Assembly (NCBI GenBank): GCA_001949185.1 | Contig: BDGG01000001.1 | Coordinates: 5,135,624-5,199,623 of the forward strand | Length of the DNA: 64,000 nucleotides | DNA from: Ramazzottius varieornatus | Taxonomy: Eukaryota > Animalia > Tardigrada | Direction: 5' to 3' | Shown: positions 12,401 to 63,954 of the stretch, piece after piece | Position numbering within the stretch: position 1 is the first letter of the stretch | Layout: every line of letters begins with the position of its first letter | The notes under the pieces: model-generated | Databases searched by the model: none | Seen by the model: the letters and a program-made list of their open reading frames with translations, nothing else | Told to the model about the DNA's origin: nothing | Program-made: the position numbers and the translations under genes

Positions 12401-12756
12401 CAGAATTAGCTCAAAGGCTATTATACTTGGGTAGCGACCTAGCCTTGTTCCGAGAGCGGAGTATACTACCCCTTGTGTTAAGCTTTGAGCGAGATTCGGC
12501 ACAAGCTCCAAACGACTGGAACAAGCCCTGGAACACGAATAGAAAGCTTTGAGCTTGCAATATTTAGCTCAAAGCCTATCAACGTTATGACTGCCATTGA
12601 TTGCGATTGCGTTGATCGAATGCGTCTGGCACTTTGCAAGTTGAATTTTGAAATTTCAACTTTCATATTATTAAAGGTTTCTCGAGCATCTTCTCCACTT
12701 GATAATCTCTTAACCTTGATCTTGCCTCAGTCGTCTCACATTGTTCTGTCCAACCA

Positions 12757-14022
12757 TGGACGGTCAACAACCAAGTTCAGGGAAGAAAGCTGGTGGTAAA
12801 CGGTCAGTTGCTGGTCGTCCAAAAGTGGGAAAGAAGAAGACGCCAGCTGAAACGCCGGCCAAGAAACATCGAAGATCGACCACGAAAAGGAAATGGAATG
12901 AGAAAGATATTGCCGATGTGATCACCCTGGTTGAGAAAAACAGAGTGTTTTACGACACTAGCCATGTGGATTATTACAAGGCGAAGGACAAGCGGTTGGA
13001 TATCTGGGAGGATATGGCCAAAGAGTTGAAGCTTGAAAAGACAGGTGAGCTACATATAATACGATTTTCTTATAATTACTGAATTATGGTTTCTGCTAGT
13101 CTTGATACGTTCTGCTGGACGTACCTAAGAAATATGAGGATGCTTTTCATATTCCTTGCTTAGTGTGCTGCCATTGTGTGAAATTGATACGTCTTTTCTG
13201 CAGGTGAAGATGTCAAGAAGCTGTGGACAAATCTACGTCGGAACTTCGGTAAGAAACTGAAGAAGCACTTCGGTAAGAAACTGAAGAAGCATGGTACAGC
13301 ACGACAAGCCACCATTGAAACCTGGCCTCACTGGGACAGTATGCAGTTTTTTCGCGACTACATAACTCCTACCGAGTTCTCTTTGTCGGATGGAACAACC
13401 GACGACGAGGGAGACAACAATGACGGAACTGGCGACGATACCAGCCTCGCTGCGAACGCAATTATCGATATCCCTAATCCACCCTCTGTTCAATCGTCCA
13501 CAGGTAGGCACAGCCCATTATCAGTGCATTGATGGATGAACCATGCAGGACATAACTCAGTGAATTTTGCAGCATCCACGTTGTCCAGCGCTAGCAAGCC
13601 GAAGAGAAACAGCAGTGGGTTGCTTGTTTCTCAGCAAGTGGAAGAATTAAATGAGGAAGAGAAAAAACTGGTCAGTCAAGCTGATGAGCTGACGAAAGCC
13701 TTGGGTGTGATTGGTGCGAAGTCTGACTCTCCAGAAGCACAATACGGTATGTGCACTACAGTATCTAATCGAAAGTTTGTTAGTTTAAAATCCGACATTT
13801 GTCTTGCTGTTAATTACCACGTGGTGTCTGGTGATATTCTAGTTACGTTATAGGCTACGTTACATAACGGCAACGTTGCTGAATCAAGATGCAGCTGGTC
13901 GTTCAACCCTCCGACAGAAGATTGTCCAAGCGGTGGCAGTCTTTCTGTACGAGAAAGCAACGGGATTCGGTTTCCCTTACCGTCCTAGCACGCCCATTTC
14001 CACGGAAGAGCACAACTTTGAC
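12757..14022 (+). CDS. Harbinger Myb/SANT-like (MADF) DNA-binding protein, spliced; 3' end approximate
   Basis: WNEKDIADVITLVEKNRVFYD...IWEDMAKEL|EDVKKLWTNLRRNF...WPHWDSMQFF. Intron ~13045-13203. In-frame 24-bp duplication at 13243-13290. Confidence 0.8.
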
Positions 14023-14104
14023 AGCACCATTTACGACTTTACGGTTTTATAGAAGTTTCTACATCACCAGCGTTTATGTAAACAGCTTTAAAGCAGCAAT
14101 ATTC

Positions 14105-15615
14105 TCATTTCTTTAATGTACCAAATACAATGTTTTCTTGCCACGGTAGGCTTCCATAAGAATTAGAGAATACAGAAAAATCTTCTCTGTTTCTGATAGC
14201 AGCACGTCCAGTCTTATTTCCGCTTAGTTTGAGAGGAATCATACTTGCAGGCATCGTCTTACGCCAGGAACCAGGTACAATGCTACCGTCAGGAGCCTCG
14301 CTGTCCACCAAGGTTGGGTGGATGTAGCTCTCGCCGCTCTTCGCATTTTCTTTTCTCAAAAAATTATGCAGCGCGCAGCATGCTAGGGTGAGGTAGATGA
14401 CCTGCATAAATTCCAGGTCGATTGGTCCCTTGAAGATTTCCCCATTTTGCCGCAAGGATGCCGAAAGCATTCTCCACCTCCCGACGAGCCCTTGACAATC
14501 TGCAAGTTATAATATATATAACACCTCTACGTACAAAATATCGAACCTGGAGTTGAAGATGCGTTCATGGCTGCCTAAACTCGACGAAGCTTATCCTGGG
14601 AATGGTCGCAGTAAATTTTCAGACATGGGGAATGCAGCATCGGCCACGAACACCTACGGTAGCTTCTTCGAACACTGTTCTGGCTTTCTAGAAGGAGGTA
14701 GAACCTACTCCCCGTCGTACAGAGCTCGGCTCAGAGTACAGTTCTGCCACGTTCCACCGTCGCTTTGCCGTCCAAACCCAACGTCCACATATTCAAATGT
14801 GTAGTTCGCTCCCGCCACAGCCATAAGAACGACTGAGTGTGTTCCCTTGTAGTTGATCCACTTACTCCCACTATTTCTTGGTTTCTACAAAAAGTTTACA
14901 ACCGTAAAAGGTGCACACGGAGAAAGGCACATAATCTCAAACACAGTTTTACCTTGATTTGGACATGTTTCCCGTCAATGGCGCCGATGAAATTAGGAAC
15001 GTTCCACATGACCTCGAATTTCTCAGCGTTCTTCTTCCATCTCTCCTTGCTTGGTTCACCTATGTAGACATCTTTCAGAGCATCGTATATGGCCTTCGTT
15101 GTTTCTTTGAAAATTTTGCTGATCGTTGTTTGAGATATAGCAAACGAATGGGCTGCTGCAGTCTGCGTGATACCCGTTCCAAGAATTCTGTAAGAACATC
15201 TGCTCGTTATAACTCTCCCATTCCATATACCAGATTAAAGAATACAAATATTACTTGCTTTTACCTTAAAGTCAGAACGAGTCGTTCTTCAGCTGATGGG
15301 CTGTATATGCGTTGACTGATAAGTTATCAACGGTGTGACTAGCTTTAGCAGCATCTTGAACAATGGCTCGGACATCTGAAAATATTCCATGTAGTATTCC
15401 ATGTTCTCTGCGAAGGTTTTCACTCTTCTCACGTACTCTCCAGATTCTCCCCTATTCACGTTAACGGGACGGACATACCATCTTCTTGCCTTCCGTTGAC
15501 GAGAAAGAAGGGATAAGCATTGTTGTCGCTTGAGCGCCACTTTGCGTTGTTATAATCTGAGCAAACGTAACCGACAATTCAACAGTAAAGCAGTAACAGC
15601 AGATCTAGAATCCAT
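14105..15615 (-). pseudogene. Harbinger DDE transposase (HARBI1-like), disrupted
   Basis: RRWYVRP, YFQMS..F..LL, GAIDGKH, NYKGTHSVVLMA, SDGG, FVADAAFP, RARREVENAFG and ACCALHNF. Frameshifts and stops lie between the blocks. Confidence 0.9.
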
Positions 15616-39399: not shown

Positions 39400-40560
39400 T
39401 GCATCATGTGACCTGCGGTGTCACTTGGCCATCAGTAAAGAGTTATATCAAGAAGGCGACGTGCAATGAAGGAAATGTCCCGGCAGGAAAGACGACTATG
39501 TCTGGCTCCGATGCTATCTATGGCTGTTCCTGCAGTGCTTGAGGAGGGCGCTCATGCGAAGTATTCTTTCAGTGCTGGTCGACCGTTATGTCTTAAAGCT
39601 TTCTGCTTTGCATATGCAGCATCGAACAACACTGTCTACCGGTTGCGAACCTCTCTCAAGAATGGTGGGTTTCGTGTTGTATAACCACCAGGCAACCGTG
39701 GTCGGGCGCTGACAAGGCCACGATCCCTGCTGACCGCGAGCTTCCTCCTTCAGAAAGCCAGCTTATTCGGATTGTCGATGCCAACGCCAGCACGGGCAGC
39801 ATCCAAACCACCATCGATCTATCTACCTTCGGATCTTTGTCCTACGGTCGTGTACGGTCAGTACCTTCAGATATTTCCGAAGGACGGCCCGGAAAAGGGT
39901 GTCAGTAAGAAAACCTTTCTTAAGGTGTGGAAGCAGTTAGTGCCGCACGTGAAAGTCCGAAGTCTGCGCAGCGACATGTGCAAGGACTGCGATCAGTACT
40001 ACAGCCGCATATATCACTACCGAAAGGAAGGTACCCCCTGTGATGATCTGTTGGCGAAATGGACAGCACGCAAGCAAAGGGCGGACGACGAGCGAGCTAA
40101 ATATGTCAGCCACATGGAAAGCAGCATCGCAAGCTACAAACAGAATGGTTTCTTGGAGGGCAGCAAGTTTCCAGCGGGCAACAATTCAAAGCGCGTTATT
40201 GCTTTCGACTTCGCGCAGTCCGTGAGTCTTCCAAACCATACCGACCCAGTGGGGCCTATTTATGTTAAAGTAAGCTCGCCTACTATCGGAACATCTCAAA
40301 CGTAATGTTTTCATACCTAGCAAGCGAACCCCAGCTGGAACAGGGTTTCAGCTGGGGTTCGAAGTCGGCGAAGTCTATGCAGACAACGTTGATGGTTTTG
40401 TTTACGGGTCCAGCTGAAATGCCACTTGTTCGGCCTGGAAGACCCAGCGCGAAAACCCTTCAGTTACTACCTTGCCGATGAAACAGAAACCAGCGGACTG
40501 GACGGAAAGCAATCTCACGGACATAACGCGATGATTTCCATGGTCGATTACTACAGGATC
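39400..40560 (+). pseudogene. Sola-like transposase remnant (5' half)
   Basis: LCLKAF..Y...PGNRGR, TFLKVWKQLVPHV, SDMCKDC, FDFAQSVSLP..GPIYVK|..KCHLFG, YYLADE and HGHNAMISM. Truncated downstream. Confidence 0.7.
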
Positions 40561-41139
40561 AGAGGCTAACTTTTCTAACTCGCCGAAACGGGGGAGTACT
40601 TGTCTAACTGACATTTTTCTCGGTCGTCTTCCAACCAAAAATTGTCAAATTAATTCGCAAAGTTGTCCCAACACTTTGCTTTAGTCTGAAGTATCTTGAA
40701 CCGGAAATAGGTGACAGATCGAGGCGGATATGATTCAGAAAGCAAGAACGTTTGAAGATGGCTGGCGATATTAAGAAGCACGCTTTCTGCAGAAGGCGTA
40801 ATGCAGCTCAGCATCAGCTGATCCAGTTAGCCACATATATGACGCAACAAGCAGAAATCACGCGGGGGGTACACAGCGTGCTTGAGACTCTACGGCTGGT
40901 TTCTATACAAAGTCAGAACGGCAAAAACTTTGCTAACTTTCGAGCGAAAACATATTGTCCTGACAAATCTACGTGAGCACTGCTTGCTACCACGAAGATT
41001 ATCCTTCTTTGTTATCTTCCACCCTCTAAAGTTTACCTCGTTTATTCACCATGTCTGGGAGCATACCTTCAACAAGCTCTGCAACTTCCGAAAGCTGCCC
41101 TTCCGTTCCTCCGCAGCTCGAGATGAAGGCTCAACCGCG

Positions 41140-41770
41140 GAAGAGACAATACGTGCAATATTATCCTAATAGCTGCTCTGACCGCTGTCAACGATGGAAT
41201 GTCCACTAGGATGGCTGCCGAGAAGTACGATGTGCCTCAAAGACCCCTTTATAACAAAGCCAAGAGGAAACATCCAAAGAAGGCCGGACGTCCAAACACG
41301 TTTTCGCTGGAGGAAGAGACGGAAATATGCGAAATCCTCATCCGCTGTTCGAAGATTGAAGTTCCGCTAGGCAAACGAACGCCGATCAAAATCGTCAAGG
41401 CAGTAGCGCTCGCTAAAGGTAAGCCTCATTCCGTTGATTTTCGCTCGTACGAAAGATAACATTCAGGGAAACATCGACCAAATGTGAAAGCTGAAAGATG
41501 ACTTCTGGTGAAACCACTACCAAGGCTATCCTTGTTTTGGCCTATATTCTGTTTCTAGGCATGAATGGAGCAAAGTTCGCCGATCGATGGCACCGGAATT
41601 TCCTTCGAAGAAACCGTGAAATCTCGCTAAGAATGCTGAGTGCGCTGAACTTTAAGAAATCAAGGGAATGGACGGCTGCGCGTTATGAAGAATGGATTTC
41701 CCTTCTGCAGAAGCTGAAGGATGACGCTTTTCTCGATAATCCTGACGGGATATAGAACTTGGACGAATCT
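41140..41770 (+). pseudogene. pogo/Fot1-like transposase 5' remnant (Psq-HTH + CENP-B HTH + start of DDE_1)
   Basis: MSTRMAAEKYDVP, GRPNTFSLEEE, WHRNFLRRN and I*NLDES. Intron ~41419-41558. Confidence 0.8.
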
Positions 41771-44884: not shown

Positions 44885-45204
44885 CGTGAGGAGCATCGGG
44901 CGTGGCAGGCTAATTTAACTGGCCAGACCCATGGTTTGGTCCGGCCCTTCTTACTTTAGTATTGAGTTAGCTTAGCTTGGCAGCGTCAGGCCTTGTGCCG
45001 AACGTCGGGTAGTTTTTTGGGTGGTCGTTCTGCATAGCTTGGAGTAATACAGCTCTGTCGTCGACTACGGTCTGGTGTTGCGCGTTTTTGGAATTTATTC
45101 GGTAACTCGGGATCAGGGAAAGTCCAGAGCTAGGTTAGATTTAGCGAAGGGAGTCTAGCCTAGTGTGTAGCGAGGCGTCTTGTAGCGAGGCCAGCAGCGT
45201 CACA
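44885..45204 (+). repeat. 5' LTR
   Basis: Direct repeat of 56414-56731 ending ...CGTCACA. Its first base is C rather than T. Confidence 0.95.
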
Positions 45205-45205
45205 T

Positions 45206-45220
45206 TGGTGCCGAAACCGG
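45206..45220 (+). promoter_or_regulatory. Primer-binding site, tRNA-Phe type
   Basis: TGGTGCCGAAACC, 1 nt after the LTR, is complementary to the 3' end of eukaryotic tRNA-Phe (…GGTTTCGGCACCA). Confidence 0.85.
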
Positions 45221-46167
45221 CTTGGGAGTGGAACTCGGCCGTTGGGAGACAGGGAGTATTGAATTCTGCGTTTCTTAAACGCAGTCTTCAAGCTTTGGGT
45301 TTCAATTATCAAAATATTGCGCGCTTATCTATAGCATTATTATTTATCTATTATATAGGATTTCTGCTCTCGTTTTTTTTCTAGTTTCCTTCTTAGCCGT
45401 TGCGAAAAAGGAAGGATCCTGGCCTGATCAACCAAGATTTCCCCCGTTTTGCACGGTGCACCTACCTTACGGCATCTTCAAAAGAGATCTTCACTTCGCT
45501 TCGCTTCATTGTCTAATCGGTCTTGATTAGCTCCACCTCTGCCCTCTGTCCAGTTCTTCAAGCAAGCTGACTTCACCCACGCCAACTCTGCCTGTCCATT
45601 CTCATTCCGTGCACGGTAAGAAGTATTCGCGCCAGTTCGAATATTCTTTGTGCGCCATCTTGGGTTTTGTTTTGTCTTGTCTTGTCTTGTCTTTGTTCCG
45701 CAATCTTGCACGCCTTCACCACCTTTCTTCGGTGCTTTGCTGAGGCCTTTTCTTGCTCTTGCGTACTTATACGTCTTACATTATAATATCATTATTAGGC
45801 TAACATTTACGGGTCGAATATTCCAAAATCCAAGAATAGCTTCCCAAAATTCAAAAGCTTTTCGAAACCAAAAAATTGTCTCGTCAAGAACTTTTCAGAA
45901 GAAGGAAAAAGTGAGAGAAATTCAGGGACAAATTCTCCCGTAAAAATTTGCCGCTGGCATTTAATTCGCTCACTGAGCTTTGGTTCCGGAAATAAATGCG
46001 AAAATTGACAAGGGTCAAGTTAGGTTCACTCGAACTCTCCTACGCACGTTCTCTCTCTTCGTGCTTCTTTGCTCTCTTCTGTTTTCAGCTCTCTATTCTT
46101 ACGCTTTACTTTTGTTTTCTGTAACTCGGGCTCACTTCTTTTGTTGTTCCACGTCGGGAATTACTGC

Positions 46168-46422
46168 GTGGTACTTGTAGAGTCTCACGTAGCGCCTTCG
46201 GCAAGTCAGCGGTACGGTGGTACCGACTTGATAGGTGGTATTGGTGGTACTTTTGAGTGGAGTTTCTGGTACTTTTAGGTCAGACTTGTACTACTTTTAG
46301 GTGGCACCTGTGGTATTTTGCGTGGCATTTTTAGTGGTACTTCCGACAATCCCTGGTGGTACTTGCGGTATTCTTTGGTGGTACTTCCGACAGTCTTCTT
46401 TCGTTCTTGTAGGTGGTACTTT
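46168..46422 (+). repeat. Array of GTGGTAC(TT) motifs in the retroelement leader
   Basis: 7 exact GTGGTAC copies (46168, 46217, 46244, 46334, 46356, 46378, 46413) plus ~7 near-matches. Confidence 0.85.
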
Positions 46423-46520
46423 TCGGGCACCAAGTGACATTCTTGCGTTACTGCTGTGCTTCTTCTTCGGCACATACGTTAGTCCATCGTTACTTCATTC
46501 TTGCTGGTTTCTGTTTGGGG

Positions 46521-47880
46521 ATGGTGCTTGAACACACGCCAAAACACGAATCAGGATACAGTCGTTTGTTAGCAAGTACTCAAAGAAACAGTTCCCAGAC
46601 CGCTACTTCTTCAGCGGCAGTTCCGGGTGCGCAAACCTTTGTCCTATCTGCGCCAGTCATGTCCACGCCAACAGAATTCACACCCTTAAATACTGAACAG
46701 CAACAGCAGTTGTTGCAGCAACTCCAGCAGGCCAGGCTAGCCAACCAACAACTTCAAACTGAAAACCAACGTCTAGCACAAACACAAAGTGCATCCGCTC
46801 TTCATAATCCCAGACGAGCTTTAGGGCAGGCTCTGAATGAGGAGTCCAATACGACGGAGGCTATTGTAGTGGAAGCAGATAAGATAGCTCTGGCTTTACA
46901 GGACTTCCGAAAATCGTTGAAGGTTTTTCGGAAGCACTAAATACGGTTCTTCCGATAAAAACCGACAGCAAAATATTCGTGACACCTTCGACAGTCACGA
47001 AGTTCCTTCGTTAATGAACGGATACCATGATGCCGCGTACGTCGGATTGCGCTTTCATTCCGACAAGACAGTGCGCGGTAACTTCCGGGAGGGGGGGCAA
47101 ACTCTTTTAGAAACAAATCAAATACCGGCAGGGCACAGTATAATCCCTCCCTAAAGTATTTCACGTGTGGTCTTTCCGGTCACGCGGCAGTAGACTGCTA
47201 TTCAAGTAGAAGTACTACCTCCACTTCGGCGGTGGCGAATAGCTTTACCAACTGCGGGTACTGTGGGAAGAATGGCCACTGGGCTGCACAATGCTTCAGA
47301 AACCCGGCCAACCAAAGCGCAGGCGGTAACAGTGGGAAACCTGAGGTGTTTTGCGGCTTCTGTGGAAAATATGGCCACCTCGGTCAAAAATTTTTCAAGA
47401 GTCCTTTCAATACCAATTAACCTACTCAGGATGTGAGGAATTCAGCTCCTTCAATCCAGCCTACCAGTTCAGACAACTGCTACAACTGCAATAAGCCGGG
47501 GCATAAGGCACGTGACTGTACTGTTGATGTTCAGTCAACAACAGATAACGCAATCACTTGCCACAAATGTGGGGGATTAGGACATCTTGCCCAGAACTGC
47601 GGCACCGGTCAGCAGTCATCGAATCAAACAAACAATTCTGGGGTGACTTCCGGTAACAACATGCGGGGACAGTCAAATTTCCGAGGCGGCCAGTACCGCG
47701 GAAACAACGATAATCCGTTCCCGCGAGGTACTTCCAATCAAGCGCGATGTGACATCTGCGGCTTGACCGGCCATACCACTCAGATGCATCACGCCAGATC
47801 AAATGAAGGTCAGCAAAGCAACAACAGTACCAACAACCAAACCATCACACAAAGATTTTCTCGCGGTAACCAGCAAGTCA
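46521..47880 (+). pseudogene. gag: gag (Q-rich coiled coil, capsid apparently deleted, six Zn-knuckles)
   Basis: ATG at 46521, CX2CX4HX4C-type motifs at 47157-47792, and a stop at 47418. The knuckle region is in the same frame as pol. Confidence 0.85.
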
Positions 47881-50208
47881 ATAGTATTGTCGTAGAGAGC
47901 GTTAAGGAGAAAGGTCAAACCATCATTGTTCCTGTGTTGGTGGAAAAACAGGAGCAGCTGGCACTGGGCGACGGTGGCGCCGGGGCCTCAGTCATTTCTG
48001 GTGACCATACGGCTTTTCTGGGTCTTGAAGTCTCCGAACCCTTACTTACAGTATCGGCTGTCAATGGACAGCGGGTTCTCCTCACTGATCGAGTACAAGT
48101 AGAATTAACACTTTGTGGAAAAAGCCAGATGATTTCTTTGCACGTTATGCAGCACTTCCCTTCCCAAGCTTACGGCGTCATTCTCGGTACGGATGTTCTA
48201 GCGCAGTTTGACGTCATGATCGACGTGGCGAAGAACCGGGTTTTTACTATCAATTTCTCCGAATCCGTGTACGCACCTCATACAGTAATTGTGCCAGCTC
48301 GTACAGCGGTCCAGGTCCTGGTACCCGTAGGTGATCTGGGGTGCGAGGAAGTATCCGTCTCTCCTAACAAGCTTATCCTTCAGACTAAGCTTCTTTCCGC
48401 AGTGAACTGTCTTTCCAAACTGAAAGATGGGTTTCTTCAGGTGCTGATAACTAACTTCTCCCTTCAAGACCAGGTTCTTCCGTCGGGTACTACCATCGGA
48501 ACAATAAAAAAGTTTGACAGTGCTGATGTGATCGAAGATTTTCGAGGATTCGCTATGACGAGTGAGTCTCGCGAGGAGAAGTTCCGTAACGTGAAGCTTT
48601 CCAACGTTCCAGTTCCTGAGGCGACGGCGGAACAGCTACGTGAAGGTGCCGAGCTGTCCCAAGAACAGTTTCAGCTTGTTTCGCAGTTTCTCGAATGGTA
48701 TAAGGATCGAGTCTTCCCGACGAAGGAACGACCTCTTGGTCTCACTGACAGAATGGAGATGAAGATGGACACAAAGGATGCAGTTCCTATCTTTAAATAT
48801 CCGTACCGTACTTCCCAGCAGGAGAAGGAAATTGTTAGGGCAGAAGTCAAAGACATGCTTGCGAAAGGTTTGTTTCAACCTAGCCAAAGTCCATGGGCTT
48901 CCCCGGTGCTTCTTGTAAAGTAGGAAGATGGGTCCGTGAGGTTCTGTGTCGATCACCGCGGTCTCAACGCGGTCACTGAAAGTTTCGTTTATCCTCTACC
49001 CAGGATCGAGGATATCGTAGATCAGCTTGCAGGTTCTACAATTTTCTCCACCCTCGATATGAAGTCGGGATACTTCCAGGTTCCCATGGATAAGGACTCT
49101 ATGGCGAAGACAGCTTTCATCGCTAATGGAGGTCTTTACGAGTTTACCGTTATGCCTTTTGGAGTAGTGACGCTCCCCGTTACTACCAGTGGATGATGAA
49201 TATCATCCTTTCAGGCTTGCTTTGGCAGTTATGTGCTTGTTACATTGATAACATAGTCGTGTGGAGCCGCGATTTTCACACTCATCTTCGGGACCTCACT
49301 TCCGTTTTTGATCGTATCGTGGATGCAAATCTTGTACTAAACCCAGTCAAATGTCGGCTCTTTCAATCAGAAATAAATCAACTCGGTTTTACGATCAATA
49401 GTGAGGGTGTCAAGCCGACAACGAAAGGTATCGATCCGATCCTCAAATTTCCTGTTCCTACCGCCATCGATAATTTGAGATCCTTCCTAGGAAAAACTGT
49501 GTACTATCGAAAGCATATTCCCGGTTATTCCGATATAACCGAGCCTTTGCATCAGCTACTGAGGTCAAAGAATGGTAAGTAAGTTCCTTTCGACTGGAAG
49601 GAACCACAACAATATGCGTTCGACAGGTTAAAGTCTATATTGACTTCTCCTCCGCTTTTACGTCATTTCGACACAAACTTGCCCACAGATTCACACGGAC
49701 GCTTCTGAATATGGCGTGGGATGCGTCATTGAGCTACGGCATCCAAATGAACCGTTAGAGCGTGTGGTAGCTTATGGTTCTAAGATGCTTAACGAGACAC
49801 AGGAGCTGGAGCGCTACGGAGAGGGAAGCTTACGCTGTGTATTGGACCTGTATGGAGTTTAGGCCTTACTTGCTGGGAAGAACAGTGAAGGTCGTTACGG
49901 ATCACCACGCACTTTGCTGGTTGTTCTCAAAGCATACGGTTAACAAACGTCTTACGAATTGGGCCCTTAGTTTGCAAGAATATCAATTAGAGGTCTTTTA
50001 CCGTAGCGGTAAGCGTCACGAGGACACCGACTTCCTGTCCAGGAACCCAATAGATCCACCATCCGAAATTGAGGATAGGATCGTCATGATGTTTGAGCCA
50101 ATCGAGATTAAAAGGCTTTAGAGCGAGGATGCAACTTTATGTGCTAAGATTCTAGGAATTCTTGAGCGCAATGTAGCGGAAATAGGTCCAAAAGACGCTA
50201 AAGCAGTA

Positions 50209-51580
50209 CTGTAACCCTTCTAACATCTTTAGTACGTCACTCAAGTTAAATCTACATGTCGCGAAAAAAGAGAGTTTGCAGTGCTTCAAGCACGCCTACC
50301 ACAGTGATCTCACAGTTACGTCAGATCTGACAATAGACTGCTGAAATGAGCTAATTTCCAGTTTCCAAATTCCGAATGCGTTTTGAGAATCCCGGTTCAC
50401 CACTGATCCTTGTTTCCTCATTCCAACACTTCAGTGTCGACCAACAGTGCTTCTACAGTATCCATGATGGGGAAGGTGCGAAAGACGTCATATATCGAGA
50501 TTAGGAAGAGAAAGAGGATTGTGCAGGAGAAACCGACGTTAGGTCAGAAGGCCTTGATTATCTTCAAGAGAGAAGTGCAACAGGTAATTTTTGTACAGTA
50601 CATGAAATTATGCCGTATCCTACGCACTGGATACTGTTCCCGAATTGAGTGGTTCTTGCTGGTTTTTAGGCATCGTTCCAGCAGATTGCTGACGAGTGTG
50701 GTCTATCGGTATACGGTGTGATAGGGATTTGTCAGAAGAAAGAAGAGATCAGATTCGCGCTGGCGAATGGCGCAAACCCGAACCGGAAAACGACAAAAGT
50801 CAACTTGCAGTTTCCGCAGATTGACGAACAGTGTCTGAAATTCTTAAAAATGGCTCGCGAGAAACGAATCCCAGTTCGCCCAGTTTTCCTCATGAGCGTC
50901 GCTACGTTTGTTGCGTCGACTTTAGCAATTGCCGACTTTCGATGCNNNNNNNNNNNNNNNNNNNNNNNNNNNNNNNNNNNNNNNNNNNNNNNNNNAGTGG
51001 ACAATTTTTCTGGACACAACGTCGCTTCTCGTCCCAACATAGAGCTACGGTTTTTGCCGCCTAACTGTACCGCAAAAGCGCAGCCATGCGATGCGGGCAT
51101 TATAAAATGTCTGAAAGACGAGTACAAAAAGTTTCTTTATAAACGAGTGTTCACAAATATGCAGCATGTAAGCAACGTTGAAAGTTTTGTGAAAGGCCTG
51201 ACGATTTTCGATGCAGTGGATTGGCTGGTAGAAGCGTGGAAACTCGTGAAGCCGTCGACTATTGTTAACTGCTTTCATAAGTGCAAGATTGTAGATGAGC
51301 TGTGGATGGATGTGCCAGTTGAAGAACCGTCGGAAACTGAGCTGATACAGATTTCTCAATTTGCAGAAAATGTGGTTGGCTTCGACGATGATGTAAGCTG
51401 AACACTTTTTTACTTCCCGTCATTTCTCTCTACTCGGCTGATACTTCCATGTTTCCAACGTTCTTTATCTGTTGCTGAGGTTGCTCTGACGTAACTGTAA
51501 TCTGACCAAGCGGTTGCCTTCGTAATGCTTCTCTTAAGCAAAAGACCAGTGACGTACTAAAGATGTTAGAAGGGTTACAG
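50209..51580 (+). mobile_element. pogo/Tigger-like DNA transposon nested in pol
   Basis: Perfect 33-bp TIRs CTGTAACCCTTCTAACATCTTTAGTACGTCACT, TA TSD (50207-8, 51581-2), CENP-B HTH and DDE_1 (VDNFSGH, FLPPNCT..QPCDAGII). Removing it restores the pol frame (AKAV|KRFKL). Confidence 0.95.
50946..50995. other. Assembly gap (50 N)
   Basis: N run inside the pogo transposase. The DDE N-terminal half is missing there, so the true gap is probably larger. Confidence 1.
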
Positions 51581-53222
51581 TAAAGCGTTTCAAGTTGATC
51601 GACGGGGTTCCCTGCCGCGAGTTTCTCAGAGAGGATACAGTGCATGATTTACTTTGCGTACCGAAGCTTCTGCGATTCGAGGTTCTTCAGGCGTGTCATG
51701 ATGACAAGCTTTCTGGCCATTCTGGTTTTCGAACGACTTGGGACCTCGTCAAAAACAGATTCTTTTGGCCCGGCGTGTTTACGTTTGTGAAGCATCACGT
51801 TCGGTCTTGTGTTTCGTGCCAAACGCGAAACATTCCGACGCAGGCGGAAGCAGGACTACTCCAACAGGTAGCAATCAAATCGGTGCCGTTTCATCGAGTC
51901 TCAGTTGACCTCATGGGCCCCCTTCCCTGGTCAACAAACAAGAAACGATACATTATCGTTGTAACTGATCAGTTCAGTAAGTTCGTCATCACTGGTTCCT
52001 TACGCACAAAGGAGGCCGAGGAGGTTGCCAGGTTCATGATCGAGCATGTCTTTCTCATTCATTCATTTCCGTTGGAAATGTTGAGCGATAATGGTTCAGA
52101 ATTCAACAACAGGATAGTTGAGGCTGTTTTGAAAATCTTAAACATCAAACACCTCCATTTTTCCTTCTACTGGGCACCGGGGAACGGGCAGGTAGAGCGA
52201 GCGAATCAGACATTTCAAAGGTCAATCGCTAAGTACATCGACGATAAGCATAAAGACTGGCACCTTATTCTTCCGTTTGTGACACATGCATACAACACCA
52301 CAGTGCATGAGCTGACAAAGATGAGTCCTTTCTACATGCTCTTTTTCCGAAATCCTCGCCTGATCGCGGACCTTCAACTTCCGACTCAAGTTTCTGATAC
52401 TTTCGTCGACTCATTTGCAGATCGCGTTGAAATCATGAAAGTAACAGTTCAGGCTAGGGTCGAACAACAGCAGGACCATGCGGTGAATTACTTCAACGCC
52501 ACTCACAGGTTTGTTGAATACCCTATTGGAGCATTAGTCTTGCTGTACAATCCCACGGTGAAGAAAGGTAATGCTAAAAAGTTTACACATCCATATCGAG
52601 GTCCTTATAAGGTAGTAGAACGCCCATCGGTAGTGAACTACGTCGATACACGTCGGGGCAAATACAGACGAGAACTGACTTACGTCAATCGAATGAAGCC
52701 GTTTGAAGACAGGCAGGATCTTGTTTTCTCGGAAGGCGCCTCTTCAGAAGACGAGTCGGAGGATGAATCCGACTATGAGGTCTACATGCCAAAAGCAAGC
52801 GGAACTACCGTTCGCCTGACTTTGCCAAAACAGGATGGTGCGGTATCTCAGCTTCCCGCTGTTGGGTGCCCATCTGCTTCGTCCCTCGTTTTTCCATTTG
52901 TGTCACCAGGTTCAAACGTTCCTTCGACCTCGCAGTGCGCGCCGCCTGTCTCACTTCATCGGTCGATGTCTAATTCTCAGTTTGCCGTGCGTCCCTCTGT
53001 CTCTCCGAGTGCGTCCACTCCTCCTCGTGTGTCACCGCCACTCCATGTTGAGCTTCCCGAGGAAGTTCAGCATGAGGTTAGCTTCGTCCTTCTTGTGTTC
53101 CCACCTGCAGGTCCTGACGACGCAGGTAGTAATCTTGGTCTGTACTACGACGCTAATAACCTGAGGCGTTCGTAAAGAGCGCCCACCTTAAATTCTAAGT
53201 ATTACAACTTCGTGTAAACAAT

Positions 53223-56001
53223 ATGCAGGTTGATCGGGTGCGCAGTCAGGACGTTCGGGTGCATCAGCATCCAGTCAATGCGATGGTACTGCCATGCACT
53301 GATCCAACCGTTGTGTCACTCAGATACAACGAGGATGTAAACGGCAATCATCCCGTTATCATCAGCGCTCTTTTAGATACGGGGTCGGGCATTAGTATCA
53401 TGACGAAGGCGGTTGATGAACGGCTGGGCATCGAAATGCAACGTCCATTCATTCAAGACGCGCGTACGATCGGCGGTCTGGTTCCTATCATTGGCCACGT
53501 CGAGGTTAACGTTCGAATTTTCGGCTCTCGCTCTCGTAACAGCTCGTTCCACGTGGTCGAAGAATTTCAGTCGGATCTGTATGAAGTGATTATGGGTGGC
53601 AGTACAATGCGCAGTCTGAGGGTTTGTATCGACACGTACGAGAAAATAATTTACGAGAGCGGGTGCCGGGAGGGACTCTATACTGAGGACACCGTCCTTC
53701 TGTACCCTAAAGAGGTACGACAGCTCATTTTGCCGGTTGACGTTCCCTTCAAACACGTCGGCCTTGAGCTGGAGCAGGACTTGGTCGAACAGGGCGTCGC
53801 TCTTATCGATCGGGTACTCCAGGTCGCTCACCAAACGGTGACGCTCACGTTGAGTAATCCCACGGCAGACACCATTCTGCTAGACGAGGATACGAAGTTG
53901 GCTAGTCTGTATCGCGTTAATCGAGAAGATTTCCTTCATGAGCGTTACGTGCCGCGCCCTGCTGTGCCGGGCTGGTGCGCCCATGAGTTCTCTAGGGTTC
54001 ATCTGGACAGTCCGGACGAGCCGACTATCAATGCTATTATCTCCCCATCCGTGGCAGACGGGGCTCCCTCCCATAAACGGGTGCGTACTTCACCAGTACG
54101 GTCCTGGCTGTTGGCCGCACTCGTCCTTTTCTATCTGACTACGAGTGTGCTTGTTGGCGCTACTACAGTGTGCAACTGTACAGCCGCGCCCACGGTGGGC
54201 GTGGTCGACTATTCCGACTACGCTCGTTGTCCCAATCTCACGGCCTCACAGGCGGTTACGCAGGACGTGGCGTACACCAGCTACGTTACTGCGGCCGCTA
54301 GTCGAACGTTTAAGGGACATGCGTGTTCCATGTAGCGAAAGGAGTTAACAAAATACATGGGATTTTGGCGTTCGGTGACGGAGACATTGAAATCTGCGCC
54401 TTCCGATGTCGGGCCAGTTCAGTGTTGGAATCTGGTACAAACAGGGTCTTGTTTGGGTCATGAAACGGGAGGGGCAGGTTTCCCGACATAACAGTGAGCC
54501 GTACGGTGATGCGCTGTGGATGCAGTCCATGACGTACACCGTTACAAATTGTCTGGTGGAAGAAGTGACTTTCGAACAAGCTTGCACCACCTGTCCGGTG
54601 GTAACGGCTAATGGTCAGTTGGGTTCGGCGTACGTGGACGGCGCGGGAATCCGCGGCCACGTAAGCTATATCTGGCCGGTCGATGACATTTTCGCTGATA
54701 AGTCTTGTTCCCATCGTAAGATCTATGAAGGACCTGCAGTAATGCCGTTCACGCAAACTGTCGAAATAATCCGTGACTCGAAACGTCAGAAAGATTTCAT
54801 TCTTGACGAAAACGACACTGAGATTTGTGCAGTCGCCGGGGCGAAAATAACGGACCCTGGTCTCCGATTGATAAAGGTGGTGGGCGAACCAGATATTCGA
54901 ATTGCTTTTGAGGGTGTAAAAGCTTTCCCCATCAAACCGCGAAAACGTATGGTCTCATACTCGAAAGAAAGTGAGACCGTAGTCAGTCGCATAGATAAAG
55001 CTCAGTCTCACTTGCAGTGGTTAGAAGACCGCGAAACATACCGTGATAATCGTCGGATCGACGAAAACGGAATGACTCACTGTAGGATGCGTTCCCTCCG
55101 ACTTTCCCTCATGTTCTCTCTCAGTCAACAATCCGGCATTCTTGCGGGACGGGTCGCAAATTACCCGAAGTGTGCTCTCCTTGATATGCATGGCGTCACT
55201 GGCATCGTACTCCAGTGTCGGGCCGTCAATACTTCCTTTGGGGTAGAAATGACCAAGTGTGGGGCTCAGCCGGTCTTTCAGTCGAACGACCGGAAGTATA
55301 CTGTTGGTCGCGATGGTTGGACCATGCAAACGTTTTCTCCATGTATTTGGTCTGGGTCTATGGTGAGCTTCAATGGGGTTACGTCTCAGTATCATGATGG
55401 TGCGTGGGTCCCCATGAATGTGACAACCACGATGTGTCATTATGACGCAATGGCTCAGTACAATTATACCGCAGATCAGAGTTATGCGTTTTTCCACGGT
55501 CTGGAAACCCAAGAAATTCAGCCCATGAACCTAATGGGGGAGCTCTCTGGTCTTCTTTGTGAAGACTCTGTACAGGTTCTGGATGACGTTCTCCAGCAGG
55601 AAAAGGACGTCAATCTTTGGAATCTGAATTTGGGCGTGTTCGATGCAATCAAGTCTGCGTTCTTCGTGGTGTTTTGTCTGTTTCTGGTAATAGTGGTCGT
55701 CTACGCGGGGCACCGGACTGGGTGTTTTAAGTGCTGTGGGGTTTTCTGCAAATGTTGTTGTTCGTTGTTTACTCGGGAGAAAAAACTCAATCGCCCTGCG
55801 GTAAGTACCACCGAGAACCAGTACTCGTCCTACGCCTATAACCCGGCTAACGATGTGCTGATTCCGATGACCAACCAGCCATTCCAGTTGGACTACGTGG
55901 CGAACCAGGATGTCGTTCTGCCACTCACCGGAACCATCTACACTGCAGGAAGTATGCCGCCCGCTGGAGCTCCTCGACGAGTTACTCTTCGCCGTTCATG
56001 A
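53223..56001 (+). pseudogene. env: ORF3: second retropepsin + internal signal peptide + class III-like envelope glycoprotein
   Basis: LLDTGSG (53376), IMGG, hydrophobic signal 54096-54161, Cys-rich ectodomain, TM 55657-55710 and a Cys cluster. One stop (54333) and one frameshift (~54458). Confidence 0.8.
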
Positions 56002-56401
56002 GGTAAGTAACATAGGTAAGTGACTTACCTCATTACCCTCATATTTCCTCCATTATTTTATTGCCTTACTAATGAGACCACCAGGTCCACCTTGTATTAT
56101 GCTCTTCCAGCTGTTCCACCTACAGTTCCTTTTTCCATTTCAAACCTCCGTAGCCATTTCCTCATCCTAGCAATAACATCCGCAGGGTGAGGTTTCCTGC
56201 GGCTGCGGACCATTTTTCCACTTTTCGACGACAGCCCTCTGTTTTCTGTTTTTCACTGTTAGGATTAGCCCAGTATTGGTTTGGATGGACTTTCGCGTTT
56301 TGTTATTATTTCATTTTTTTTATTAATTAGTCTTTTTCGTCATCATCGCCACCATCGCCACCATCGCCATCGTCAGGATCATGGAGACCATGATGTCGTT
56401 T

Positions 56402-56410
56402 GGGAGAGGG
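56402..56410 (+). promoter_or_regulatory. Polypurine tract
   Basis: GGGAGAGGG lies 3 nt before the 3' LTR. Confidence 0.8.
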
Positions 56411-56413
56411 TAC

Positions 56414-56731
56414 TGTGAGGAGCATCGGGCGTGGCAGGCTAATTTAACTGGCCAGACCCATGGTTTGGTCCGGCCCTTCTTACTTTAGTATTGAGTTAGC
56501 TTAGCTTGGCAGCGTCAGGCCTTGTGCCGAACGTCGGGTAGTTTTTTGGGTGGTCGTTCTGCATAGCTTGGAGTAATACAGCTCTGTCGTCGACTACGGT
56601 CTGGTGTTGCGCGTTTTTGGAATTTATTCGGTAACTCGGGATCAGGGAAAGTCCAGAGCTAGGTTAGATTTAGCGAAGGGAGTCTAGCCTAGTGTGTTGT
56701 GGCGTCTTGTAGCGAGGCTAGGAGCGTCACA
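56414..56731 (+). repeat. 3' LTR
   Basis: TGT...ACA ends; direct repeat of the 5' LTR. Confidence 0.95.
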
Positions 56732-57996: not shown

Positions 57997-59002
57997 CCTT
58001 TGTTCGAGCAGTATACACGTTCAAGCCGTACTTTCTACAGTACTCTGTCTGTCTCTGTTCAGCTTTACTTACTCTGGCTTGTCTCATGTACAATTCTTTG
58101 TTGGCCAACTCACAGTACAGACGGGTTGAATGTTCATCAACTGCGCTGCTTATGGCATTGAATGTGAACAGCCATGAATACTTGAGACGCAGCAGTTCTT
58201 AATTAATAAAAATCAAAAATCTCCACATTTGCATAATTTTAGGGAAAAACAGTGTCATTCAAGGGTTTTTTTCTTCCCAAGGGCGACGAAATTTCAACGT
58301 CTTTTTGCCGGCTTCTTTGTGTGCGGCCTTTTGCGGCATTTCAGAGTTCGATGCAGCTTTTTTTTCTCTACAAGATAGGCTCAGAAAAGCACATTTCGGA
58401 ATTTTCGCATGATTTAGGGTTTCTACTTGACAGTACCCAAGTGTAAGATGGTCGAAGAGAAGTGGAGTGAAAACCAGTCAGAAGAAACTGCGGAAGTCAC
58501 TAGTCCAGCACATTCTTCTGCTTTGTCGGTTGTCTGCGAGTCTTGCGAGTTTTGATGACGATGTGTTGTAGATACTGCAGTGTAGTGTTGATTTTACCTC
58601 TTAAAACTTGTGTTTCCTTGTGATTGTTCCGTTCTTGCTGTGCAAATTTTTGTGTAAAATGACGTAGTAAACTGACGTAGAGCGAAAGCTGCCTGTTCGC
58701 TTCGCAAACTCTTTAACAAAAGTATCGCCTGTGACGTAGGGAAATTACTGGAGAGAATACAGTATAGTCTTTGGAGGCCGTTGATGACCTGTGATTTTGA
58801 CGTGCCGGCAATTTCAAACGGCAATCGCCGATTGAGCGAAGAAGTTTGGTGTTGCTGATTCGACAACGAGAGATTGGATTCTTACGCAAGCGAGCTTGCA
58901 CACGTTAGTGTTACCAAGCAGCTGTTTAACCTGCTACTGTGTCGAGTTTCTTGGCTGTTCGTATGCGGTTGTCGTCTCTTTTTGAGGCTCGTTTTGCACA
59001 AA

Positions 59003-62000
59003 ATGCTAAGCTTTCTGTGCGAAGATTTGTATCGGTTCCTCAGATTCAGCTTCATCTTTATCTGCTACCTTTCCTGCATTCTTGAGGTTCGATCGCAGCT
59101 ATCATACCGCTTTGGTGTCGTGCTGGCCAAGAACTCTGGTGATGTTTGCGATCAGTCATTAGTCATGCCCGTAATTAACCAAGCTATTTCCGACGCACTT
59201 ACACTCAAACCAAGTGTCAACCTTCAAATGATAACGCAGCATTACGTTCCACCGGTAGACAATGGCGCAACTGTTCCCATGTGCGACAATGTCAGAGTGT
59301 TTTCTTCGACAACGTCAGCCGCGAATCTAGCGACCGGTCAGAACGTGGTGGACGATTCTGGCAATCTTTTGGTTCCTCAGCCACCCAAACTACAGGGCAT
59401 GATGATTCTTGGACCAGCTTGCTCATACGATTACCAGGCTGTAGCCATGCTAACTGGAAGTGACTCTGCACCCACCATGCTTTTGACCGGTCAAGCGGAG
59501 CAATTGTATTCGACAAATGACATCCCTCTGGCTGTTCGGGCTTCTTACAGCGTTTATGCCATGTGGCATATTTTGACCAAGGGGATGGCCACCGAATACA
59601 ACTGGGTCAATATTGCAGGGATGTACGACAACACTGATACGATCCAGAGCCGCTATTGGGAAAGTGAGTGGATAGGAACGAGTTGCAGCATCAGGCTACC
59701 CTTGTTAACAAATGCTTGTTTGCTTGAAAGAAAATAGCTTTGAAGCTGAATATCAATGGTGGTGAGGTCAACGGCTATATCAATCAAACTCAGGTTGGCA
59801 TGGCGGGTGGAAATGCCACGGCAGTTGAAGGCAGTTGCGACTTCCCGGCGGTGCCTCGAGATGGTAGCGAACGACCTTTGCCGGACGATGAGGCTTTCAA
59901 AAACTGCTTTACTTTGGTCAATCAATCATCGCGCAGTGAGTTGTCTTATTGTGATCTGTGGACCAAATTTCATTGCTTTACAATATGCGGGTTCCATACT
60001 TTTCTAGTTATTGCCTTACTGATGAACCCTGCATACATTCGTCAAGCACTGATCTATGCCCAGAAGAACGGAATGACCACCGGAGAGTACGCTTACCTGG
60101 CCGTCGACATGTTGCACGATACCATAATTGACGTCAATCCACCGATTTGGCAGAACGGTAAGTCCATGATGCACACCATCCTTAGACCTGCAAAAGACAG
60201 ATGTCACAATACGATCATGATGACTTCTGAAAATTAAGCGAATCAAACGTATTCGGTTGACTAACTGCGCCGACATTTATGCAGCGAACGACTCTGCAAA
60301 CGACGCGATTGCCAAGGAAGCCCTCAAATCTCTCTTCGTCATTGCCCTGCCTAATTACAAGAACGATTCCAACTATGTTAACTTACAAGCCCAAATCCAA
60401 AAAACCGTCCCTTCTTTCCAGTTGACCTTTTTCATCGCGGCGTTTTATGATGTTCTAATGATGTTTACCATGGCACTTGGTCGGTTGGCTAGTACAGGTA
60501 GCGCTGCAGTAGATGGCTGTCAAGCTGCCGGCGTTACTGGAGGTTCAGTTAACAGTTCCAACTGCAAAGCAATTCGGAGCGCAATGGTGGATATCAGTCG
60601 AACTGGAGTCGGCTACAAGGGAGCAAGTGGCCTGATAAAGTTAGGTCCATATGGTGATCGTTACGTTCTGACCGAACTTTTTGCAATGGATCCAAGTGGA
60701 GCATTTTACACGGTATGCGCAACTACTGTACATACGAAAACGATTACCGTTTTTGAAATGAAGTAATTATGTTCTTTTTTCCAGAACGTTGCTCGATATG
60801 ATCCCGAAAGTCACAATTACACAGAGTTAAAAACTATTCCGTGGGTGGGAGGTTCACCACCAGCAAATGAACCAGCTTGTGGATACGAAGGTGTTTGTCC
60901 AGAAGAGTTTCCGGAAGTGGCAGTAGCGGTCGGCGTTACCATCCCTGTAATCTGCGGGTTAGCGGCCCTCTTCTACTTTTACTGGAAGCAGGAATCCGCG
61001 AGACGAAAGTCGGATCACGAATGGATTGCGACGATTCGCCAGATGCAGTTCCCCAAGCACAAGAAAGACGAGTTCGGTGAAAATACCCCCGAAAATATGG
61101 TGGACGAAAGCCATCAGGCTCAAGACACCGCTGCGGAAGGTCCTCATCTCAAGTTCTATAATTTGGTCAAAGGGTTGCACGAGACGTGTTATTTTCAGCT
61201 GGACATTCTATGGGACGCTCAATGGGAGCGTCATTCGGTGGGTCCTTTGGAGGTTCAATGGGTAGCTCGATGAACATGACTCAGTCCATGCGGAAAAAGA
61301 TGGCGCTGATGGGCGAACATTTTGGCTCGTGGAACAAGAGCGCTGTCATCATCCGCTGGGTCAACCGCAGACGGGTGGTACTGACACCTAAGATTATCAT
61401 GGAAGTCCGCATCATCCGGAAACTTGCCCATGAGAACGGTACTTTCTCACCTCGCTTACTTTATCCCACCCCAAATGAGTGCTAACCGACGTTTCTGTTT
61501 TCAGTTGCAAAATTTATTGGCGGATGCTTGGATGAAAATCATGTTGGGATGATGTACGAGATGTGTACAAAAGGACCTCTTCCGGTAAGTTCCATCCGTC
61601 CGCCAATCCGCATTCGGAAGCTCTCGCCAGACGCGGTTTACATTCGTCCGTGTTTCAGCTAATGTTCGAAGGGGAAGCAAGGGCGAAGATGGACTGGACC
61701 ATCCGCATGTCTTGGATAAAGGACATTGTAAGCGGTAAGGCATTTGTCGAAGTTGGTATTTACAGTGCTGAGGAGAAAGCCCAAAATGGTTCCATTCTTG
61801 TTCCCTTTTGATCTGTAGGAATGATCTACCTGCATTCATCGCCCGTGGGAACGCATTCCCGCCTGACATCACATTGTTGCTACATCGACAGTCGCTTTAC
61901 CCTCAAAATTACCGATTACGGTATCCCAACAATCTTTACGCAGACACTGTCGGAGTTCTGGACATCAAAGCGAAGCCCGTCTCACGCCAACAGCTTACTG

Positions 62001-63954
62001 TGGACTGCGCCTGAAGTCCTTCGAGCAGCGGCTGAAGGCCTTGTCGGACCTGCCATCTACACCAAAGAATCGGATGTGTACAGTTTCGGTATTATTCTAC
62101 AGGAGATGGCGCTACGCTCAAAACCTTACAACATGTACACCGCCATGAAATCGAGCGGTATGAGTGCAGAGATAGTGTGTCGAACTGCAGAATGTGTCTC
62201 TGACAACTGGACATTCAATTGTTTCAGAGATCGTGGATGAAGTTAGAAAAGGAGCATCAACTAGTGGCGTACAGTTTCGGCCTCGGTTCAACGACGACGG
62301 AGAAAATGTTCCGGTGAAGATCATCGAGCTCGCGCAGCGTTGTTGGGCGGAAGAAGCTTCTCAGCGACCACTGTTCGACAAGATTCGAGTGGCAGTTCGG
62401 AACGTCGCGAAAGACATGTCAGTAGGCTCCTGTTTTCTACAAGACTGCTCTGTGTGAAAGTTCCCATTTGGTTCGCAGGAATATGAACGATCAAACGAAT
62501 ATTATGGATATCTTCATGGCTCAAATGGAGGAATCGGGAAGTCATCTGCAGCACGTCGTGGAAGAAAAAGATAACGAGCTGCTACAACAACAAATCAAAA
62601 GTGATGAAGCCTTTTTGTACGTCTTTCCTCGGTAAGACGAAGCTTAGACCTATCCAACTACATGTGCAATTCCATGGAAAAAAAGAGAGTTACTTTTATA
62701 GTGATGTGGCGGAAAAAGTCATGAATGAGGAGGCAGTTGCTCCCATCAAAGTCAACAACGCCACCATCATGATGACGGACATATTGGGATTTGAGACCAT
62801 GTGTGCGGAAAGCTTGCCCGCCCAAATCACCCAGTTGCTCGATGACTACTACGAACTTATGGAGAAGCTCTTCGCTCAGTTCCAGTGCTTCAAAGTGGAG
62901 CACAACAGCGACATCGTGATGGTACCAGTGCCACTAAGCCCAGGTTTTTCGTAAGGGCTAACTTTCATTCTCTCACCTCTATTCTGCAGGTGGTTTCTGG
63001 AATATTCGGCGAGTCCTCAAAACATGGTGCAAGAGAGATTGCAAGGCTGGGACTGTTCACTGTCATCGAAATACGACAGTTCGTGATACATCACCGACCA
63101 ACCGAGCAGCTGAAGCTACGAATCGCCATAACGTCAGGTAGGGCAATATCTTTATGAAAATCTACGAAAGTTTGTCTGCAAATTTCTCTGTAGGTCCCAT
63201 GGTACTGTCCGTACTCAACCTGAAGGCTCCACGCTACAGTGTTAGCGGACAAACCAACATGATTGCTCAGCGGATGCTTCAAACTGCAGAACGTAAGGCA
63301 GCTACGAAGACGAGCTGTTCTCGAAATACGGGTTTCTGGTTTGACTGTCGGTCGTTTTGTTGCAGCCTTACGGGTGTACCTTTCGGCATCAAGCAAAAAA
63401 TTGTTGGATGGCTATAAGACCTTCAGGTTCAAGCCTTCGCCCGCCAGTCCAGTTATTGTGGATGAGGAACTGGAGATCGACACCTGCTTTTTGGTCGACG
63501 AAGATGGTAAGAACAAGACAACTTGGTTTCAGAAAGTGATTGATAACCCGAATCTGTCCTCGATACAGGCAATGAAGAACTACGCGCGAAGAGGCTTCAG
63601 CTGCACGATGGACTCGAACTGCTCGATGAAGAACTGTAATCAACCGGCCAGAAACTCTACCGTGGCGACTTGTGTCGCCCAGCCGAGACTTACACATTCT
63701 CGTTGTGGGTTGTTGGTTCACGTGAATCAGTACATGCTGCCCACCATCACGAAAGTTCGACTGATCAAGTGACTTACCTTTCAGTTTTTTCCCCCTGGAA
63801 TCGCAGAGATCTCCATGATCCGGAAGTTGGTTCAATAAAAATACTGAACAATCCTTTTAATTCCGGGCTGGAAACGCTTCGGTCGATCAAGAGTGAACCG
63901 TGCATAGACGAAAATGCGGACAAAGCTGCTTCCTCACTACTTCCAGAAATTTGA
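59003..63954 (+). CDS. Receptor-type guanylate cyclase (NPR/GC-A-like architecture) with a divergent catalytic domain, multi-exon
   Basis: Signal peptide, ANF-receptor domain (ILGPACSY, YNWVNI), PP..PACG, TM helix, pseudokinase (HSRLTS..C.IDSRF.LKITDYG, LLWTAPE, DVYSFGII), coiled coil, and cyclase (TDILGF, KVE..D, LRI, PRY). Confidence 0.92.

Follow-up and report, generated by a model that had tools for sequence, protein, structure and literature searches.

A second retropepsin module joined to Env in a decayed errantivirus-like element of the tardigrade Ramazzottius varieornatus

Retroviruses and retrotransposons with long terminal repeats (LTRs) are, to our knowledge, taken to have one protease, the timing of which is set by Gag-Pol assembly. 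Here we analysed a stretch of 64,000 nucleotides (nt) of Ramazzottius varieornatus (contig BDGG01000001.1, positions 5,135,624 to 5,199,623 of the forward strand; hereafter the window), which carries a Ty3/gypsy LTR element with a third open reading frame (ORF3) that places a second retroviral-type protease (PR2; PR1 is the protease of pol) ahead of the envelope protein (Env). The closest described systems include errantiviruses with an Env of the herpes simplex virus (HSV)/glycoprotein B (gB) type, five of which, Hduj_4-6 and Pmet_4-5, have been reported from tardigrades (Chary and Hayashi, eLife 2026; PMC13524379). In that paper the way in which gB-type errantiviruses spread is described as unknown, and a screen of the R. 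varieornatus assembly returned one POL and one ENV match, which were not annotated (PMC13524379). The available text of a curation of tardigrade repeats does not contain the word 'protease' (PMC11071193). In the literature searched, which did not extend to subscription journals, Repbase or GyDB entries or Sacco et al. 2022, no element carrying an additional protease upstream of Env came to light, in agreement with an earlier note on this DNA whose author knew of none, and the gag-pol / pro-env architecture is undescribed there for any retroelement.

Our analysis revealed that this layout is real and inherited in a decayed tardigrade errantivirus-like family. We take the domain order, the reading frame, the intact catalytic motif and the recurrence in other copies as established: ORF3 links a second retropepsin module with a signal peptide and the start of a likely gB-type Env. 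On balance, we consider it probable that in the active ancestor these were made as a single precursor from which the protease would have freed itself.

A second retropepsin in frame with the start of Env

The following features of ORF3 and Env, and their counterparts in pol, carry the comparison (positions in the window):

47877..47891, + strand: VNSIV, putative protease site before PR1 (motif scan; kept in the copy P0007)
47886..48260, + strand: PR1, the pol protease (RVP_2, E 2.1e-5)
48261..48545, + strand: post-protease beta-rich domain 1, in pol (position as in PMC5408684 and PMC6431247)
53223..54335, + strand: ORF3 as preserved: a leader followed by PR2, the post-protease domain, a linker and the signal peptide, then 57 Env residues and a premature stop
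53274..53288, + strand: VNAMV, putative protease site before PR2, containing Met21 (motif scan)
53283..53672, + strand: PR2 retropepsin domain (DTG at 53376-53384)
53673..53945, + strand: post-protease domain 2, in ORF3 (identities to other copies below)
54027..54041, + strand: INAII, putative protease site downstream of the PR2 module and upstream of the signal (reads VNAVI in the relative P0004)
54105..54161, + strand: hydrophobic internal signal peptide with basic residues upstream (hydropathy; identity to P0004 below)
54162..55620, + strand: Env ectodomain, gB/class-III-like and Cys-rich (likeness by eye to Tardigrada C2 sequences; Atlas leads)
55645..55712, + strand: Env transmembrane anchor, then a Cys-rich stretch (hydropathy up to 2.86)
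55713..56001, + strand: cytoplasmic tail of Env, containing a GT..AG intron of 87 nt, in frame, at 55801-55887 (X16 contig joint; isoform P0002)

ORF3 comprises 370 residues and opens after pol at a new ATG (53223) in a different frame, as the earlier note had described. The pol frame 51553-53175 closes with LRRS and a stop, and the same frame continues with RAPTLNSKYYNFV to a second stop at 53217, which is the likelier true end of pol because the first stop (53175) is a point of difference in contigs of other versions. The letters LRRS stand immediately before the stop both in the integrase tail (53161-53175) and in the Env tail (55987-56001). Met21 of ORF3 lies in a stronger start context than Met1, and the protein record P0003 of a second copy begins there; judged from the sequence, Met21 may be the true start.

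PR2 shows the D-T/S-G triad, the Gly-rich flap and the hydrophobic-hydrophobic-Gly motif of retropepsins, in the form of LLDTGSG (D52; DTG at residues 52-54), TIGG (82-85) and IMGG (123-126), and matches the Pfam family Asp_protease_2 above its cut-off (E 4.6e-7). Single-sequence comparison gave weak matches to DDI1, while a profile search retrieved Ddi1-like structures (E 1e-6) and structures of ASPRV1. In the Atlas, the top match (0.96) falls among retroelement protease clusters, and the structure match covers ORF3 residues 25-238 (template-modelling score, TM, 0.55). The homodimer model scored 0.65, compared with 0.00 for the best of three controls; the mark used for this score is passed by 21/30 solved pairs and 0/23 single chains from microbes, and by 17/29 and 0/30, respectively, from eukaryotes. 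At least 89% of contacts are shared between the homodimer runs, the predicted local distance difference test (pLDDT) value is at least 74, and in the model the closest contacts are T33-T33 and D32-D32, so that the Thr and Asp pairs of the triad touch. The dimer pass may stem from resemblance to solved retropepsins; AlphaFold2 gave a pLDDT of 33 from the sequence alone and of 30 from a six-row alignment. PR2 is a retropepsin by family, profile and model, with a canonical homodimer predicted, and the earlier reading of ORF3 as encoding a complete retropepsin holds.

PR1 and PR2 share 35 of 124 residues (28%; E 3e-12), and no similarity between them was found at the DNA level, which together indicate that their relationship is old. 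A repeat of the post-protease segment had also been claimed. The two domains align nearly without gaps, but this alignment is not significant alone, since 408 of 5000 shuffles equal its score (1343 of 5000 for the distal part). The repeat is supported because its first half lies within the PR1-PR2 BLAST alignment and because the Atlas match extends across it. Neither domain matched Pfam or PHROG up to E 10, and phage tblastn returned chance-level matches only. Domain 1 is possibly a degenerate dUTPase-like domain, a likeness of position and of pattern.

Downstream of this module, the frame remains open through a linker into the hydrophobic segment W295-A313, the sole segment of ORF3 above the hydropathy threshold. 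Because ORF3 contains no Met after residue 129 until residue 370, the signal lacks its own start codon. The claim that ORF3 runs without a stop into signal and glycoprotein stands for the signal, which is in frame, and for the first 57 Env residues: there a stop (54333-54335) follows in the window, and after a frameshift at ~54455-54470 the remaining Env continues in another frame to 56001. These breaks are not assembly slips, because contigs of two runs (X1 and X5) show no differences there. Read through both breaks, with X at each, the precursor would comprise slightly more than 900 residues with a C-terminal transmembrane anchor. Env had no match in Pfam, PHROG or the PDB, and its Atlas leads (gp64, Monjiviricetes_fusion and rhabdovirus G) remained at 0.81-0.84, below 0.9, with TM up to 0.42. 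By eye and unscored, the ectodomain tracks the five Tardigrada C2 gB-type sequences through FKG..C..W, CW..VQT..C, NC..EEVT.EQ.C..CPVV and RD...Q.DFIL.

Recurrence of the layout in other copies

Other copies of the element were reached through proteins and DNA contigs; those seen are dead and few, and come from one species and one partial record. A HMMER search of 1.84 billion proteins gave five matches. P0003 (RvY_16142) lies on a second scaffold (1.66 Mb, versus 9.33 Mb for that of the window) and is identical in 119/130 residues of PR2 (92%) and 81/85 of the post-protease domain; it keeps the DTG, and env pieces come next, into which the record jumps across possibly predicted introns, one of which is bounded by GT..AG in the window. 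Next to P0003 lies P0007 (RvY_16140), the PR1 that belongs with it; its catalytic triad is canonical, whereas that of the window copy is degraded. P0004, from a 1282-nt contig and 65% identical, runs in one frame from the post-protease domain (47/71 residues identical, 66%) through the linker (28/55, 51%, with two one-residue gaps) and the signal (15/22, 68%) to the start of Env (22/24, 92%). P0005 comprises the Env start only, and P0006 and P0007, the two of the five matches that are not ORF3 relatives, are PR1s. Apart from orthologues, the closest relatives found for PR2 are PR1s of the same family, which fits a duplication within the lineage. At the DNA level, contigs of run X1 cover the PR2 start in three versions, and one contig, of another version, bridges the end of pol to the start of ORF3. 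Missing variant contigs over 53976-54742 were not taken as a deletion in other copies, as the filter drops records.

PR2 is hence no one-off: it also lies upstream of env at another locus and in additional versions, and the 65% relative keeps the frame from post-protease domain to Env. A recent chimera, a nested insertion or an assembly artefact, to which the visible damage of the element, the absence of a target-site duplication and the oddly identical LTR cores could be ascribed, is largely refuted by the second scaffold, the three contig versions, the bridging contig and the 65% relative. Together with the lack of DNA similarity between PR1 and PR2, and with the absence of any gag or LTR remnant before PR2, these make such an origin very improbable.

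Putative self-cleavage sites and the proposed mechanism

Both the decay of this copy and a set of putative self-cleavage sites had been overlooked in the earlier note. The motif [VI]N[AS]hh (h, hydrophobic) occurs three times in 2189 coding residues, where 0.12 are expected and none of 5000 shuffles reached this count, a statistic that is inflated because the motif was defined post hoc. All three sites fall on module boundaries, one immediately ahead of PR1, one immediately ahead of PR2 and one 25 residues upstream of the signal, and the last is retained in P0004 although the rest of the linker is half changed. ASPRV1 cleaves itself at IVFAN-SMGKG, where P2' is always hydrophobic (PMC11402058). 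The same type of motif before PR1, PR2 and the signal, similar to the ASPRV1 site, suggests self-release of PR2.

We propose that PR2 and its post-protease domain stem from an old duplication, within the lineage itself, of the pol module. The internal signal would thread the precursor into the endoplasmic reticulum, with PR2 staying cytosolic but membrane-tethered; signal peptidase would release the ectodomain after VGA. Tethering would concentrate PR2, which could then dimerize and cut after Asn in VN-AM and IN-AI, which would set free a protease module of ~250 residues and leave a signal stub of 43 residues. As a guess, the resulting protease pool, produced at the membrane in parallel with Env, would most simply aid Gag-Pol maturation where particles bud. 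The earlier suggestion of a PR-Env polyprotein whose protease is tethered or released by signal peptidase thus survives in part: the fusion frame recurs in P0004, but the putative sites point to the element's own protease rather than to signal peptidase alone. The further ideas of that note, that PR2 could couple particle maturation to envelope expression or cleave host factors, are speculative. It is quite possible, though short of probable, that this tardigrade errantivirus lineage had two proteases, that of Gag-Pol and an Env-borne cytosolic head that was activated at the membrane and cut off at Asn sites, tying maturation to envelope production.

Alternatively, the fusion may have been translated with PR2 staying on the membrane, where it would cleave the Env tail or host proteins, or pair with PR1 to regulate it. 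PR1 and PR2 are unlike at 72% of positions, which leaves room for a different specificity, and the topology places PR2 on the same side as the Env tail of ~95 residues. However, the same motif precedes both proteases, suggesting the same specificity, and the Env tail has no [VI]N[AS]hh motif, and we regard such a role as quite unlikely. Replacement of a dead PR1 by PR2 was rejected in view of the canonical triad of P0007.

Several observations weigh against the self-freeing precursor. Retroviral-type proteases do not have a strict consensus site (PMC11402058), one version of ORF3 carries a stop and an altered Asn in the leader, and a start at Met21 as in P0003 would render the VN-AM site unnecessary. 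Since PR1 is canonical in P0007, PR2 is not required as a substitute. The P0004 record begins at residue 166, so that its protease part lies outside the record. In other species PR2-Env was not found in searches that were weak and needed shared 5-mers: PR2 against proteins of 649-2000 residues gave none of 1280 candidates, the C-terminal frame of Env one of 3306, which was the window's own isoform, and Env with X bridging both breaks none of 4416; viral and metagenome contig collections yielded no relative. Moreover, no selection test reached significance. The 24 differences in ORF3 comprise nine synonymous and 14 non-synonymous changes and one stop (P 0.09-0.21 versus a synonymous expectation of 24-28%); without the version with five leader changes, nine of 19 are synonymous (P 0.057). 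For P0004, the conservativeness of changes in the post-protease domain gave P 0.09, and the open frame across its 60 changes has a chance of 0.13. P0003 showed no conservativeness signal, as expected of decayed copies, and the test itself is weak, as in P0006 the post-protease domain reached P 0.0001 but PR1 P 0.73. Finally, a splice-acceptor-like site at 54058 lies directly before the signal.

This site and the non-significant tests would suit a scenario in which a spliced subgenomic RNA, landing just before the signal, gives rise to Env, and PR2 with its post-protease domain is a passenger piece of pol, acquired in an old recombination together with env and passed on to every copy. In Drosophila gypsy, env is as a rule spliced, and the present element does splice within the env tail: the tail intron is spliced in a contig of run X16, presumed to be RNA, and in the annotated isoform P0002, so that the dead env seems to undergo transcription and alternative splicing at its 3' end. 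In contigs of a presumed RNA run, 185 nt of PR2 and portions of env are represented, though not as a single transcript or with a level. On the other hand, PR2, which is 28% identical to PR1, retains the residues of catalysis, flap and dimer contact, the frame is open through the 56-residue linker both here and in P0004, and a cleavage-like motif is retained in that linker. Furthermore, P0004 has another residue pair across the acceptor, which makes the same phase unlikely (the alignment is uncertain). We consider the passenger scenario unlikely and retain the self-freeing precursor.

Setting, decay and comparison with known systems

The rest of the element is organized as follows:

44885..56731 (11.8 kb), + strand: the whole Ty3/gypsy LTR element (direct repeats, alignment)
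44885..45204, + strand: 5' LTR, 3' end TCACA (direct repeat, alignment)
45206..45218, + strand: primer-binding site, beginning TGG (sequence), putatively tRNA-Phe-like
46659..47885, + strand: broken gag with ~6 CCHC-like knuckles, joining the pol frame at its end (zf-CCHC, E 4e-10; frame map)
48760..50199, + strand: reverse transcriptase (RT), RNase H plus the start of integrase, all broken by stops and frameshifts (RVT_1, E 2.7e-9; RT_RNaseH, E 7.3e-19)
50200..51589, + strand: insertion of a pogo/Tigger-like DNA transposon of the DDE_1 type, the inverted ends of which are 42 nt long (DDE_1, E 3e-16)
51590..53217, + strand: integrase with a low-complexity tail, up to where pol ends (Integrase_H2C2, E 1.5e-18; rve, E 2.5e-10)
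56402..56410, + strand: polypurine tract (sequence)
56414..56731, + strand: 3' LTR, TGTGA...TCACA (direct repeat, alignment)

Two LTRs with TG...CA ends (the first base of the 5' LTR differs), the primer-binding site, the polypurine tract and the pol order of protease, then RT, RNase H and integrase mark the element as Ty3/gypsy. No target-site duplication was seen at its ends. The LTRs are identical across 283 nt but unlike in the last ~36 nt, despite a heavily decayed interior, and contigs of run X1 disagree with the window at 45079 and 45110 in the 5' LTR at full depth; this pattern suggests assembly collapse or gene conversion. Dating by LTR identity was rejected on account of the identical cores against the decayed interior, the X1 differences and the missing duplication. 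The window copy is dead, with stops and frameshifts in gag and pol, a transposon in the integrase and a broken Env. The high-copy DDE_1 transposon that interrupts the integrase is absent from other copies of the element, whose contigs join across the site; an assembly gap lies inside it, where contigs supply 657 letters. The zinc knuckles of gag (46659-47790) are preceded by only ~500 nt, and a contig joint of run X1 at 46904-46906, with further sequence in between, may mark a lost capsid part of gag.

The window is a repeat-rich region. DNA-transposon-like frames were recognized by eye at 86-2216, 3671-6230, 12720-15315 and 39685-41459 (hAT-like, CACTA-like, Harbinger-like with a MADF partner, and helix-turn-helix). 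An intron-split host gene at 58859-63772 resembles, also by eye, a receptor guanylate cyclase with ligand-binding, transmembrane, kinase-like and cyclase parts.

If true, a diverged yet intact second protease heading Env would be a new link between envelope and maturation, and would give a handle on envelope processing in gB-type errantiviruses. An env-like ORF with signal and transmembrane anchor follows pol, as in errantiviruses; in contrast to these, the GAG, POL and ENV frames are not intact but carry stops, frameshifts and an insertion, and two proteases are present instead of a single one in POL. The element works like an errantivirus with a likely gB-type Env but departs from that group in these two features.

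Similar to Hduj_4-6 and Pmet_4-5, it is a GAG-POL-ENV Ty3/gypsy element of tardigrades, and the Cys pattern and motifs of Env domains I-II match theirs by eye, best those of Pmet_4 (PMC13524379). A protease ahead of Env is not reported for these elements, the main text using the word once, for POL (PMC13524379), in a comparison that covers domain I-II sequences only. The GAG-ENV-POL elements of nematodes, bryozoans and flatworms (Burro/GYPSM1) also combine Env and protease in one polyprotein with an internal signal, but their Env precedes a single protease, whereas here a second protease precedes Env after a complete pol (PMC13524379, PMC6431247). In Atlas virus and related nematode belpaoviruses, the protease likewise lies upstream of Env in one polyprotein; these, however, are Bel/Pao elements with one Gag-Pol-Env frame, one protease and a phlebovirus-like class II Env (PMC9094657). 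LTR elements of bdelloids share the extra enzyme in ORF3 and an extra domain after the protease, theirs being a dUTPase between protease and RT, but their ORF3 enzymes are GDSL esterases or DEDDy nucleases that were captured from outside and are not fused to Env (PMC5408684). Lastly, ASPRV1/SASPase is a retrotransposon-like protease with N-terminal self-cleavage after Asn, a feature which is predicted here, but it is a domesticated mammalian gene with no Env (PMC11402058).
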